NCBI GenBank assembly: GCA_000092065.1
Contig: CP000599.1
Reading direction: 5' to 3' (one strand)
DNA length: 64,000 bases
From: Ostreococcus lucimarinus
Taxonomy: Eukaryota
In this document: positions 8,672 through 14,803 of the stretch, piece by piece
Numbering within the stretch: position 1 is the first letter of the stretch
Layout of the letters: every line of letters starts with the position of its first letter
Notes under the pieces: generated by a model
What the model saw: only the letters and a program-made list of their open reading frames with translations
Databases searched by the model: none
Told to the model about the DNA's origin: nothing
Translations under genes and position numbers: made by a program

Positions 8672-9739
<1,068 letters not shown>

Positions 9740-9810
9740 TCACGAGGCGTGATTTATCGATATTTGCGCGCGCGCGATGGACGCGCGCGAGGCGAAGGCG
9801 CTCGCGGCGC

Positions 9811-10743
9811 TCACGCGGAGGGCGCCAACGCGAGGACGCCGCACGCCAAGCGCTGCGCTCGCGTAAACCGAAGCGATCGATCGTCCGTCAGTCGAAAGCC
9901 GCGTGCGCGAAAAACGAAACCCTAAACGCGCGTCGAAATCGCGTCGCGTCGAGTCGCGATCGTGGAAATCGCGTCGAAATCGCGTCGTCGACGCACCGCT
10001 CCGGCGTTGCCCGTCGTCTTCGACGTCTTGCCCTGGGTGCCGATCTCAGAGCTATCGCCCTTGCCGAGATCGTCCTCGAGCTCGTGAATCACGAACGCGC
10101 GTCCGATGATCGAGTTCGCCCCGCTCAGCGGAATCTGCGAGTCCTCGATGACGAAGTCGCACCCGCCCGCGGTGGCCTCGACGTTGCCGAGGTCGCCCGC
10201 GTGTCGCGTCGCGTCCGTCGGCGCGCCGTGATCCATCTTGTTCGGGTTAAAGTGCGGTCCCGTGGACATGCACCCGTTCGTCGTATCGCCGAACTCGTGA
10301 ATGTGCAGGCCGTGCTTGCCCGGCGCGAGTCCGGTGATGGAGCCGACGACCTTCGTCGGCGCGTCGCCGCTCTGGCTCAGCTTGAGCACGCCCGACACCC
10401 CCGCGGTGCCCGTGAGCACGCACACCGCCTGCTTTTGCTCCGCCGTCACCGCGACCGCGCGAGGGCGATGCGCGGACGTCTTCGTCGACCTGCGATCGCG
10501 CGCGCCGGCGTTCGCGCGCGCGTCAGTCGTCGCGTTCGTCGCGGGTTTAGGTTCGTCGCGTCGTCGCGCGTCGTCGCGCAGCGCGTCGCTCGAGCGCACC
10601 GCGCGCACGCGCACTTGGCGCCGCAGAGGTGGGTCTTGGAGGCGAGCGTCGCCGATCGGGAGAGCGTCTGCATGGCGCGGCGTCGGGCGTCGTGTGTCGG
10701 CGATGACGTGGCGAGGGCGCGAACGCGCCCTCGTCGCCATCAT
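9811..10743 (-). CDS. SOD1: Cu/Zn superoxide dismutase with N-terminal organellar presequence; two exons (10743..9997 and 9852..9811), intron 9996..9853
   Basis: SOD1 core ([17 protein letters not shown]...[23 protein letters not shown]...GDLGNV...[11 protein letters not shown]...GNAGA). The ORF-track C-terminus after GNAG is intron read-through. The minus-strand donor gtgcgt follows GNAGA, and 144 nt later ...gcgcag precedes cgc ttg gcg tgc ggc gtc ctc ... tga, which encodes [13 protein letters not shown], the conserved SOD1 C-terminus with the disulfide Cys. ATG (MMATRAR) is the reverse complement of 10741-10743. The roughly 100-aa R/A/S/T-rich leader looks like a transit peptide. Confidence 0.8.
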
Positions 10744-11070
10744 TCGAGGGCCTTTATATACGTATATTTCGTAGAAATATACTTTATATTCGGAAACATG
10801 TCGTATGGGTATTGTGTCTGTGGTTATAATTGGTAGTATCCGAATATTCGGACACACGGCGTATGCGTATTGTGTATATACACATAATTGGTAAAAGTCC
10901 GAGCGCGCCGACCGTCGGCCGCGCGCCGCACGTCGCGACGCGCGATCGCGCGACGCCCGATCGCGTCCCGCGCGACGCCCGCGGACCTTCTCGACGCCTC
11001 GACCCGATCTTAACCGCCCGCGACCCGCGCGCGCGACACCCGAGGCGTCACGTCGACGACGACGCGCGTC
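10744..11070. promoter_or_regulatory. bidirectional promoter shared by the divergent SOD1 and CCS genes; AT-rich island with a duplicated ~58-bp element and a CCGAATATTCGG palindrome
   Basis: Lies between the SOD1 ATG (minus) and the CCS ATG (plus). The 10785-10896 stretch is AT-rich against a ~67% GC background and holds two imperfect copies of CG[TG]ATG.GTATTGTGT...TAATTGGTA. A perfect 12-bp palindrome sits at 10835-10846. Confidence 0.55.
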
Positions 11071-12033
11071 ATGATTCCGTCGACGCCGCGCCTTCGCGCC
11101 GCCGCGCCGCGTCGCGTCGTCGACCGCGCGTCGCGATCGCGAACGCGGTCGCGATGCCGACGCGCGCTCGAACGCGCCGACGCGCGGACGAAAGACCTCG
11201 AGCGGGCGTTGGAATTCATGGTGGAGATGCGGTGCGGAGGGTGCGCGGCTAAGGTGACGACGGCGTGCGAGGCGCTCGCGGGCACGACGCGCGTCGACGC
11301 GTCGCTCGGGACGAACACGGTGACGGTGATCACGCGCGATGCGGAGCGAACGGTCAGGGAGGCGATCGAGAGCGCCGGGTATAAGGCGCGATTGATCGGG
11401 CAGGGGCGCGCGGAGCGAAGCGCCGAAGACGACGACGATTTCGGCGAGGCGCTGGCGGAGGCGCTGGGCACGGACGTGCGGACGCTGCGACAGAGCCTGG
11501 CGGCGGTGGCGGAGTTTAAGGGGAAGGCGTACGGGCACGGTGAGGCGCGAGGGACGGTGCGGCTGGTGCAGGTGAGCGAGGAGACGATATTGGCGGAGGC
11601 GGCGCTGGACGGGTTGAGTCCGGGGGCGCACGCGATTCGCGTGCACGAATACGGGGATTTGACGCGCGGGATGGATTCGATCGGGGACGTGTACGGGGGG
11701 GAGGGAGGGGCGGGGATGATCGGGATCGTCGTCGCGGACGAGAATGGGTCGGCGACGATGCCGTCGACGATGTTGAGCTCGGAGCTCAAGGCGTGGGACG
11801 TCATCGGTCGAAGCGTCGCCGTGTACGCCGCCGCGGACGGCGATACGACCGGCGCGGTGTGCGCCGTGCTCGCTCGAAGCGCGGGCGTGGGGGCGAATCA
11901 TAAAAAGTTGTGCCAGTGCGATGGGACGATCATCTGGGAGGCGGGCGAAGATTTCTTGCCCCGCGCGGTGGACGAATGCGACGCCGCGAGACCGCTGCTC
12001 GGCAAAGGAATCACCACCGCTCGGCGCGGGTGA
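11071..12033 (+). CDS. CCS: copper chaperone for superoxide dismutase (CCS)
   Basis: Three-domain CCS architecture: an Atx1/HMA-like domain with [10 protein letters not shown] (MxCxxC), a SOD1-like domain II ([11 protein letters not shown]...[14 protein letters not shown]...DENG), and a C-terminal CxC motif (KLCQCDG). N-terminal R/S-rich leader. Confidence 0.8.
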
Positions 12034-12121
12034 GAATAGCGCGCGTGTAATGATGATTGCGATGATTGATTGATTGATGAATTGATGCTTAAAAAGGACG
12101 TTATCGTTGAGATTGTTATAT

Positions 12122-14803
12122 TCACTTGATCTTGATGAGCGAAGGGAGCTTGACGCCGTCGATGGCGCGTTTCGCCTCGGCCCACGTCTTCGTCGTTCGC
12201 GGCGGCGGAGTCGGCGGCGGCGGCGGCGCGAAAGGTCTCGGCCGCGGTATCACCATCGTCGACTTCTTCGGCGGCGCCGCGGGCACGCTGGACGATGGCT
12301 GGTTTTCTTCGTGCGTCTTGCTCGACGGCGGCGCCGCGAGCGCCGGCGAATCGTTCGTCTTCAACGCCGGGAATTCCTTCAATCGCGACTCTCGATCGAC
12401 GGCGCTTTCGGCGTCGCTCGAGGGGGTCGCGGACTCGGACGTCGATTGCGATGCGACTTTCGGCTTGGGTGGAAAATCCGGTAGCGCGGACAGCCCCGTC
12501 GGCGGCGGAGGCGGAGGCGGAGGCGGAGGCGGCGCGGCGGCGGCGACGGCGGTCGATCTCGGCGCCGGGATGCGCGCCGGCGGCTTTCCACTCGGCAACG
12601 GCGGCGGATTCGGTGGCAGCGGCGGTGGATTCGGCATCGTCGCGACGGTTGGTCTTCGAGGCGCATCCATTTCCTTCGCGAACGTCGGTCGCGGCGGCGT
12701 GTTGGGCTTCCTTCGCGATCGCGCCGCCGTCCACTCGCCGCCCGAATCCGAATTCGCCGCGTCTTCGAGCGTCGGTTCGGGGGTCTTCGATCGCGGCGTC
12801 GTCGGCGCTTCGGGTTCGTCCTCGGCGTCGTCAGCGACGGTGATTTCATCGCGCTCGACGTCGCGCGCGACTTTCGTCAGCGCTCGCTTCGCCTTGGACG
12901 ACGAAGATTTCCGTTTCTTCTTCGAAGACGCGCCGCCGGCGGATCTCTTAGAGTTGGCGTCGCCGCCGCGGAGAACATCGTCGTCATCTTCGAACGCCTT
13001 GAGCGCAGCTTCCAAACGCGCGTCGTCCAGTGCTTTAACGTGCTCTTTGACCGCACCGCTCACGACTTTCACGAACGTCGCGCACTTTGCGAGTTCGATG
13101 CCGTACGCCAAGTGCGCGCCCTCAAGATTGAGCGCTCGAACGACGCGGTCGACGACGCCGTCGAGGGCGGTGGATTTGTACCTGTCCATCACGGGTTGGA
13201 TTCTTCGATGCAAACCTTCGACATCGTAATTTGTCGACGTCGCGCCGGCGTTCGTGGAGGAAGCGCCGCCGCTCGCGGCGGAAGTGATGGCTCGAAACGA
13301 GCGCTTTAAATCCCGCATGACGTCTCGCAGGATGACTTTGACGTCGAGCGCACGATCGGCGTACGCCTTGTCGACAACGCGCGACGAATCACCGTCACAC
13401 GAGTTCAACGCTCGCGTCGCCAGCACGCATTCTTTGGCGTGGCGCTCGATCTCTTTCGCGCTCGGTGCCGCGACGGCGAAAGAATTCCTCGCGTGATCCA
13501 AATGCTTATTCAGCACGATTTCCAGCGCCTTGGAATCCCCGGGCGGCGTCACGTGCTTGTAACACATTTCGTTCTCGCGAAGATAAAACCGCGTGCGCTT
13601 CTCGGCCAGACGGAATTCTTCCACACCCAGCTCGAGCGCCGCGGTGACGTCGCGAAATTCGCACCAGGCGCCGAGCGCGCGCGTCAAGAGCTCACGTCGC
13701 TGAATCGCGAGCAAATCCGCGTTGTCGTCGCGCACGAGCTCGGCTAGCTCAAGCATCGCTCGTTCGGCGTCGCGCTGCTCGGCGAGCCAAGACTTGACGA
13801 GGTTATGAACGCTTTCAGAAGTTTCGTCGTCCATGCGCCTGACGACGTCGAGATCGTGCGCTTGTTTAGCTTCATCCAATCCGCCCGAGGCGTCGACGAG
13901 CGGCGGCGCGGGCGCGTCGACGCTCGTGTCGAACTCGCGATCACCGAGCGTCGCCCGCGAATCGCGACGTTTGCTTCGAATCGTCGCGAATCGATGTAAA
14001 CACTCGAATCCTCGGCGCACCCAACGCTCGACGTCGACGTCGTCGCGTAAACCGATGGAATCCTCGCCGCGACGCGCGTAATCGCGCGCGTCTTCGTCTT
14101 TGACCAAATCCTCGTTCGCGCGACGCGGACGTCGCGCGTCGTCGTCGTCGTCGTCGCCACCGCCGACCGCGTCGACGACCGCACCGCCGCTTTCATCGAC
14201 CGCGAGCGCGCGCAACGTCTCCATCGCCGCCGCGAGCGCGTCCGAAGCGTCCGTCCCGCGTCGCCCCGTCGCCGTCGTCTGCGCGCCTCGACGCCCCCCC
14301 GACCCCGACCCCGACCGTCCCATCGTCCCCATCGACGCCTCCGCGCCCACCGCGCGTTCGATCGCGCGTTCGATCGCGCGCACCGACGCCGCCGCGCGTC
14401 TCCCGCGCGCGCCCACCCGTCTCGCCACCGCGCGCGCGTCCTCCTCCGCGTCTCCCTCCCCGTCCACCAGCATCGCCGCGAACGCCCCCCGCGCCGCGTC
14501 ATCGTCCCGCAGCATCGCTCGCAGCGTTCGATCGAGCGCGCGTCGCGCCCTCGATCGCGCGTCGTCGTCGTCGCGCGCCGTCGCGCGCGCCATCGCGGAA
14601 GACGAACCGTCCCTTCGATCGCCGTCCCTTCGCGCGCGTTCGTTCGACGCGCGTCGTCCGTCCTCGCGCGGTCGACGCGCGCCGCGCGCGCGTCCGTCGT
14701 CGTCGTCGCGCGCCGCGTCCGTCGCGCGCCCTCGATCGCGCGTCGCGCGTCGCGATGTCGCGCGTCGTCGTCGCGCGTTGACCCGCGCGTTGACCGTCGC
14801 CAT
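12122..14803 (-). CDS. hypothetical protein with a central alpha-helical domain and a C-terminal polyproline tract
   Basis: 893-aa ORF. Positions 12480-12530 on the minus strand encode [12 protein letters not shown] plus further PPLPP motifs. The central conserved-looking region is [22 protein letters not shown]...; the N-terminal third is R/D/A-rich low complexity. Start codon uncertain. Confidence 0.45.

Follow-up and report, generated by a model that had tools for sequence, protein, structure and literature searches.

What does it mean when the gene for an enzyme stands back to back with the gene for the chaperone that delivers its metal? Human, yeast, Arabidopsis and Closterium possess the same two functionally dependent proteins, Cu/Zn superoxide dismutase (SOD) and the copper chaperone for SOD (CCS). 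In human, yeast and Arabidopsis, SOD and CCS are not linked, and the genes for a eukaryotic enzyme and for the metallochaperone dedicated to it are usually dispersed. In a 64,000-nucleotide stretch of the Ostreococcus lucimarinus genome (contig CP000599.1; hereafter the window), a SOD gene and a CCS gene lie head to head between positions 9811 and 12033. A preliminary description, made from the letters alone, had proposed that the two share a bidirectional promoter and form a co-regulated metallation module. The reading towards which we lean is that of a divergent pair of functionally dependent genes whose adjacency would couple the expression of client and chaperone, with both products imported into the plastid.

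The minus-strand gene encodes a Cu/Zn-SOD, as indicated by a Pfam match to Sod_Cu (PF00080) with an E value of 2.3e-40. Its best structural matches are chloroplast SODs from spinach (1srd, 1.6e-58) and tomato (3hog), and its top named plant matches are chloroplastic isoforms throughout; judged by these similarities, the mature protein is of the chloroplast type. As in the plant chloroplast enzymes (CSD2 type; 1srd and 3hog), the copper and zinc ligands, the disulfide and the catalytic arginine are all in place. The copper ligands (H46, H48, H63 and H120 in the human enzyme) correspond to H87, H89, H104 and H160 of the 202-residue protein (H82, H84, H99 and H155 in the 197-residue numbering of the alignment), where they align to 1srd and human SOD1 and occupy invariant columns. 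The zinc ligands (H63, H71, H80 and D83) fall in the invariant motifs GPHFNP, DHGAP and RHAGDLGN, and the disulfide cysteines (C57 and C146) and Arg143 are found in NGC and RLACG, the latter being encoded in exon 3 across a splice confirmed by RNA. The alignment as a whole exhibits invariant H, H, H, H, H, D, H, C, C and R columns. The algal enzyme differs from its plant chloroplast counterparts in a seven-residue insertion, SSEIGTQ, within the loop that precedes TTGNAG (~10033–10053, minus strand, exon 2), which is common to the Mamiellales SODs and is not found in the spinach, tomato or human proteins.

The SOD gene model comprises three exons encoding 202 residues from an ATG at 10673. It was derived from two spliced, RNA-derived metatranscriptome contigs of public sequencing runs (L012 from SRR28369097 and L013 from SRR28369075) and from a 202-residue protein, P0121, which is 98% identical to SOD along its full length. 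The preliminary description had placed the stop correctly at 9811, a position that implies the 3′ intron. Its start at 10743 has to be given up, because the spliced RNA and P0121 place the start at 10673 and the ATG at 10743 is out of frame. A donor for intron 1 located after CGAK, 15 nucleotides (nt) away, was also considered and was ruled out by P0121 and the RNA contigs. The corrected model improves on the public calls, which are unspliced and run to 273–279 residues.

The plus-strand gene displays the architecture of a CCS, with Pfam matches to HMA (3.7e-11) and Sod_Cu (7.8e-12). Its product aligns to human CCS (6fp6) with an E value of 1.5e-24 through domains I–III, with CQC opposite the human CSC, and its domain II aligns to domain II of human CCS (1do5) with an E value of 1.7e-15. 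As in human CCS and yeast Ccs1/Lys7 (1jk9), a domain I carrying MxCxxC is followed by a SOD-like domain II and by a domain III carrying CxC. The latter motif lies, as it does in human CCS, within a conserved ARSAG...C-x-C-DG-x-IWE block, and a C-terminal block of 23 residues aligns to human ARSAGLFQNPKQICSCDGLTIWE. Both M53-R-C55-G-G-C58 and C281-Q-C283 are invariant among 14 homologs. Overall, CCS is 99% identical to proteins from marine metagenome contigs, 91% identical to a partial model from O. lucimarinus CCE9901, and 56% identical to the O. tauri protein. Unlike human CCS, the algal protein has a 45-residue leader, and its domain II has neither the zinc subloop nor the SOD-type metal ligands, both of which the human protein keeps. 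In this respect it resembles yeast Ccs1, and domain II is probably a pure docking domain. The preliminary description had made both assignments depend on the Cu/Zn ligands of the one protein and the MxCxxC and CxC motifs of the other; each diagnostic residue was found, so the gene identities stand.

Public CCS models of 271 residues begin at an internal Met or at a TTG, which is the mark of artefacts of prokaryote-style gene calling. The tripeptide LE[FY] before M50 (MVEMRCGGC) is conserved in all CCS homologs and lineages, transcripts from MMETSP included, and LEF matches the first HMA β-strand of human CCS (TLEFAVQM). Because this segment is conserved in every homolog, translation must start upstream of M50, and because the ATG at 11071 is the sole in-frame ATG upstream of M50, we place the start there. 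The resulting full-length protein of 320 residues, 45 of them leader, improves on the truncated 271-residue calls. An exact sequence look-up of the 320-residue protein returned no record. The in-frame CCS start of one related clade (L010/L011) is unreliable, as its two contigs disagree at several indels within the GC-rich leader.

The SOD-like domain II of CCS could suggest that a recent, local, inverted duplication of SOD gave rise to it and, with it, to the head-to-head order. However, SOD and CCS of the window share 33% identity over only 48 residues, and CCS is far closer to human CCS (1.5e-24), with which it also shares domain III, than to any SOD (1e-8). The low identity between the two genes, together with the match of CCS to its human counterpart, refutes a recent duplication, to which we assign practically no probability. 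That the arrangement is a relic of an origin of CCS beside SOD, a bolder variant of the cassette reading given below, is much less likely than that reading.

To follow the pair beyond the window, loci were collected by exact-protein look-ups and a metagenome scan and were then screened by tblastn. The pair is found head to head in every informative locus, covering at least 11 Mamiellales lineages and four flanking contexts; the exception is O. tauri. In all loci with more than ~1 kb of sequence upstream of CCS, a Sod_Cu domain lies on the opposite strand, with the two domain cores 676–1089 nt apart. The CCS proteins of these lineages are 99, 85, 67, 67, 66, 60, 51, 50 and 51–53% identical to that of the window (itself 63% GC), and the GC content of the lineages carrying the pair ranges from 0.47 (Bathycoccus-like) to 0.70. 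The closest named sequence to the high-GC lineages is from Mantoniella, at 59%. The first flanking context is that of Ostreococcus and Bathycoccus; in the second, the pair stands between PUB-Med31 and WD40 (L006-8 and L096); the third is represented by L094, L084 and L052, and the fourth by L068. In translated comparisons of the four contexts, which cover ~10 neighbouring genes, no genes other than SOD and CCS are shared between contexts. The comparison across other Mamiellophyceae that the preliminary description had called for thus bears out its claim that the two genes are tied by gene order, with O. tauri as the split case. In the streptophyte Closterium, no CCS was found within 10 kb on either side of a plastid-type SOD. 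SOD and CCS are annotated individually in public genomes, and the literature searched yielded nothing relevant on SOD–CCS linkage or on the regulation of Cu/Zn-SOD in Ostreococcus.

Functionally linked divergent pairs with a shared bidirectional promoter are familiar from yeast GAL1–GAL10 and from histone H2A–H2B, and SOD–CCS is a functionally linked divergent gene pair of this known kind. As in those examples, the two genes belong to the same pathway and lie head to head with under 400 bp between them, an order that is kept throughout the Mamiellales apart from the case of O. tauri. It differs from them in having a fast-evolving spacer and a split in O. tauri, and the sharing of cis-elements and co-expression are putative.

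The chemistry of copper transfer from CCS to SOD is established. At this locus, SOD and CCS would be expressed divergently from a spacer of at most 397 bp, and both pre-proteins would enter one compartment, with the plastid as the likeliest candidate. There, domain I of CCS would take up Cu(I), domain II would dock apo-SOD, and the CxC of domain III would transfer copper and form the SOD disulfide. The back-to-back order would provide a common chromatin and promoter environment and, in this way, couple the expression of client and chaperone. Such coupling would explain why the SOD–CCS adjacency has outlived all neighbouring adjacencies in the Mamiellales. One shared control region, and with it co-regulation of the two genes, is plausible.

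Several points count against this reading. Head-to-head pairs are the default arrangement in Ostreococcus: 2288 of them are reported in O. tauri, in which about half of the transcripts lie in bidirectional pairs (PMC4035068). Orientation alone is therefore weak evidence in genomes this compact. In O. tauri, SOD and CCS are still divergent, but 3.6 kb separate them, and two annotated genes, a RING-finger gene and one of 67 residues, lie in between. No strongly conserved block was found among the spacers, which, in a multiple alignment across the Ostreococcus clades, are not alignable beyond the nearest clade. In addition, the taxon labels of the metagenomic lineages were assigned from GC content and similarity, the argument for targeting draws on sequence composition and homology, and the left part of the AT-rich island in the spacer is a transcribed SOD 5′ leader with upstream open reading frames (uORFs) and not untranscribed promoter, as described below.

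The abundance of bidirectional pairs, the intervening genes in O. tauri and the unalignable spacers would all be expected of a neutral relic, that is, microsynteny inherited in gene-dense genomes, with independent core promoters and no selection on linkage. The further neighbours shared by Ostreococcus and Bathycoccus, a 2Fe-2S_thioredx gene and a Gly_transporter gene, fit such a relic as well. We nevertheless consider it unlikely, if far from negligible, as an explanation. The four contexts keep solely the SOD–CCS adjacency among ~10 neighbouring genes, and the genes retained are precisely an enzyme and its dedicated chaperone. Because this linkage has outlasted every surrounding linkage, selection on adjacency is favoured.

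A stronger form of the coupled-expression reading is that the pair is a selectively maintained, operon-like ‘metallation cassette’ of the Mamiellales, in which a shared control region, possibly through a TGACGT(C/G) bZIP site, would couple expression, with O. tauri as the uncoupling experiment. We put this form forward only tentatively and think it rather doubtful. If true, the order-wide, context-independent pairing would be a clean case, from a minimal eukaryote, in which selection has acted on the order of genes in the service of cofactor delivery. The split in O. tauri is a natural uncoupling of the pair; the 64-kb window contains no translated match to the segment that intervenes there (L005:2400-5950). 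Set against the intact pairs of the other Ostreococcus, Bathycoccus and the high-GC Mamiellales, it offers a natural experiment on whether adjacency confers co-regulation.

With the SOD start corrected, the ATG-to-ATG spacer extends from 10674 to 11070 and measures 397 bp, in place of the ~330 bp (10744–11070) read initially; it lies well within the 1 kb between start sites by which a divergent pair with a bidirectional promoter is defined. The spacer had also been described as an AT-rich island, which is true of 10744–10895, whereas the remaining 175 bp up to the CCS start are 73–81% GC and are presumed to hold the promoter-proximal region and 5′ untranslated region (UTR) of CCS. The 64 kb contain 19 such islands, defined by a GC content below 0.45 over 100 nt, and those examined near the locus are intergenic, including one at convergent 3′ ends (12021–12170). 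AT-richness thus looks like a generic intergenic hallmark here and not a feature special to the SOD–CCS spacer.

Within the island, the internally duplicated element of ~58 bp that had been noticed at the outset does exist, as a direct repeat of 50 nt with 80% identity and a period of 58; its 32-nt core was recovered by blastn against the window with an E value of 3e-5. No further copies were found by blastn within the 64 kb, and the idea that the repeat is a mobile element in the window was rejected for want of dispersed copies. The perfect palindrome CCGAATATTCGG is also present as described. There are 155 perfect 12-nt palindromes in the window and four in the spacer, and such a palindrome arises in 8% of mononucleotide shuffles of the spacer; by itself, CCGAATATTCGG is not beyond chance.

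The repeat and palindrome are well conserved within the species, with 0–3 single-nucleotide polymorphisms (SNPs) across the island. In a close relative (L019; CCS 95–97% identical), the palindrome is kept and the repeat copies are 182 nt apart instead of 58, owing to a 124-nt insert (L019:4632-4755). Because this insert separates the repeat copies, the architecture of promoter and leader is polymorphic among close relatives. In L010/L011 (CCS 85% identical), one repeat copy is recognisable and the palindrome is absent, and neither island nor repeat occurs in Bathycoccus, in the high-GC lineages or in Ostreococcus clades at a greater distance. Since they are restricted to the closest clades, both the 58-bp-period duplication and the palindrome are recent additions to the SOD promoter and 5′ leader, specific to this lineage, and are not the conserved control logic of the pair.

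RNA evidence bears directly on the function of the island. SOD-sense RNA includes at least 10674–10838, which takes in the first repeat copy as well as three upstream ATGs and a GC-rich hairpin. The view of the AT-rich island as promoter therefore fails for at least its left part, which the RNA contigs show to be transcribed as SOD 5′ leader. Contig L013 starts with AGTGGTATCAACGCAGAGTACGGG, which we take to be the SMART template-switching oligonucleotide, joined to SOD-sense sequence at ~10838–10842, the edge of the palindrome. Either this junction marks a real 5′ end, or it arose artefactually through strand invasion, as the genomic CGGA resembles the CGGG of the oligonucleotide. If it is real, TGTGTATATACACA, which lies ~35–40 nt upstream, is placed as a TATA box would be. 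The distance from the SOD RNA end to the CCS ATG is at most ~150–230 bp.

Upstream ATGs in the SOD leader region are located at 10885, 10799, 10743 and 10740. The last two are in another frame and, in the mature mRNA, open a reading frame of 127–128 codons that overlaps the SOD start. Beside them, an inverted repeat that is GC-rich and almost perfect makes up a hairpin (10703–10742) 30 nt upstream of the SOD ATG; one arm carries the ATGs at 10743 and 10740, and the other carries TGACGTGG. The leader folds better than shuffled sequences (z = −3.6). SNPs among conspecific contigs hit the hairpin stems and are uncompensated.

Taken with the oligonucleotide junction and a contig (L012) that is collinear to 10922, these features could mean that the AT-rich island, repeat and palindrome included, serves mainly as SOD 5′ leader and in translational control through uORFs and hairpin, with CCS driven from 10896–11070. 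The uncompensated SNPs speak against this account. Moreover, the junction may be an artefact, the Logan contigs are unstranded and their assembler retains the longest isoform, and the canonical TATA-like TATATAAAGG (minus strand, 10751–10760) would predict a short leader free of uORFs. We regard this translational account as possible but not probable. Both TATATAAAGG and TGTGTATATACACA are putative TATA elements.

In a k-mer screen of the spacers from 11 lineages, TGACGT was the only composition-neutral 6-mer common to all 11, the spacers of L021, L029, L038 and L047 among them; otherwise, the screen returned mainly GC-rich background. The form TGACGTG(G/T) occurs in the spacers of the window, L052, L068 and L084, and the perfect cyclic-AMP response element (CRE) palindrome, TGACGTCA, occurs in those of four of the 11 lineages, all Ostreococcus clades. 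In the window, the candidate conserved cis-element is TGACGTGG, an ACGT-core motif of the bZIP type. The background expectation for TGACGT is ~0.5 per spacer-sized window, and its presence in all 11 lineages is borderline given the many k-mers tested. As a shared bZIP site it is suggestive, a lead rather than a finding.

The pair could instead be a stress module, induced by heat or oxidative stress, with the palindrome acting as a heat-shock-factor site (GAAnnTTC) or TGACGTGG as a bZIP site. The rarity of GAAnnTTC (seven in the 64-kb window, of which the one in the palindrome alone lies in an AT-rich intergenic island) and the presence of TGACGT in all 11 spacers, in four of them as the perfect CRE, would agree with this. 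However, a heat-shock element with at least three alternating nGAAn units, the number that functional elements normally need, was not found: the palindrome offers GAAtaTTC, that is, two units, and the flanking units mismatch. The palindrome is also missing from the clade with 85% identity, and the TGACGT signal is borderline for the reason just given. We consider a stress module quite improbable.

The copper-responsive module suggested by the preliminary description, taken as one of the CRR1/SPL7 type, would have an analogy in land plants, where copper status regulates the transcripts of CSD and CCS jointly. GTAC, the CRR1/SPL7 copper-response core, does not occur in 10674–11070, although ~1.4 occurrences would be expected in 397 bp and the window contains 221. 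By this analogy, a copper module of that type may still be imagined, but it appears very improbable.

Import of both proteins into one organelle had been proposed on the basis of long R/S/A-rich leaders. Extensions consistent with organelle targeting do exist on both; the ~100-residue R-rich SOD leader does not, being a translation of the overlapping upstream reading frame read through intron 1. The true SOD leader is ~40 residues long and resembles a transit peptide: it is placed as are the transit peptides of plant chloroplast SODs, with a V-x-A-like junction just before the mature AVCVLTG. Most lineages checked exhibit an S/T/A/R-rich CCS N-terminal extension of 45–70 residues ahead of the HMA domain. 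The SOD and CCS extensions alike are S/T/A/R-rich and contain few acidic residues. By composition, the CCS extension would fit a transit peptide, although such a fit is not proof of one, and we infer that the SOD and CCS pre-proteins may be co-targeted to the plastid.

The SOD leader also carries a motif that plant chloroplast SODs lack, H-x-C-G-x-K-C-x-C (HLCGAKCAC; 10605–10631, minus strand, exon 1). It is kept in Ostreococcus, Bathycoccus, Mantoniella and strain RCC2288 but the L010/L011 clade has apparently lost it. Within the presumed transit peptide of SOD, a motif that is rich in Cys and possibly binds metal is unexpected.

Table 1. Features of the SOD–CCS locus, given as positions in the window
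Feature	Position	Strand	Basis or remark
SOD 3′ UTR	extends to 9665 or beyond	minus	
SOD stop	9811–9813	minus	
SOD exon 3, 13 residues then stop; R143 and C146 equivalents	9852–9811	minus	L012/L013 join 9997 to 9853/9852; P0121 and homolog alignment agree
SOD intron 2, GTGCGT...CAG, 144 nt	9996–9853	minus	missing from L012/L013
SOD exon 2, end of leader and catalytic core carrying every Cu and Zn ligand	10489–9997	minus	Pfam, alignments
SOD intron 1, GTGCGC...CAG, 110 nt	10599–10490	minus	missing from L012/L013; P0121 reads across the junction
SOD exon 1, coding part	10673–10600	minus	start codon 10673–10671; P0121, L012/L013
SOD 5′ leader, minimum extent	10674–10842	minus	L013 oligonucleotide junction at ~10838–10842; L012 collinear to 10922
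TGACGTGG, ACGT-core bZIP-type motif, candidate conserved cis-element	10704–10711		
AT-rich island, GC 0.32–0.39	10744–10895		composition profile
Putative TATA-like TATATAAAGG	10751–10760	minus	
Repeat copy 1	10786–10835		conserved in conspecific contigs
Palindrome CCGAATATTCGG	10840–10851		junction of repeat copies; contains GAAnnTTC
Repeat copy 2	10844–10893		comparison with copy 1
Putative palindromic TATA-like TGTGTATATACACA	10871–10884		
GC-rich stretch, 73–81% GC, 175 bp	10896–11070	plus	composition
CCS coding sequence, single exon, 320 residues	11071–12033	plus	Pfam HMA and Sod_Cu; stop 12031–12033
CCS leader, residues 1–45	11071–11205	plus	
CCS MRCGGC (MxCxxC)	11227–11244	plus	
CCS SOD-like domain II, residues ~155–258	11533–11844	plus	
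CCS CQC (CxC)	11911–11919	plus	

The 3′ neighbour of SOD (8672–9592, minus strand) encodes a 2Fe-2S thioredoxin-like protein of the NDUFV2 type, and the 3′ end of CCS faces a large converging gene of 893 residues. An Rfam scan of 9600–12200 gave only two sub-threshold chance matches. The SOD 3′ UTR contains a (GAAGCC)x6 microsatellite (9654–9689), which is located upstream of the start of the NDUFV2-like gene (9592) and within which contig L013 ends. Finally, SOD intron 2 contains, at ~9927–9990, a short internally repeated unit, GACGCGATTTCGACGCG, that occurs twice, together with one variant.

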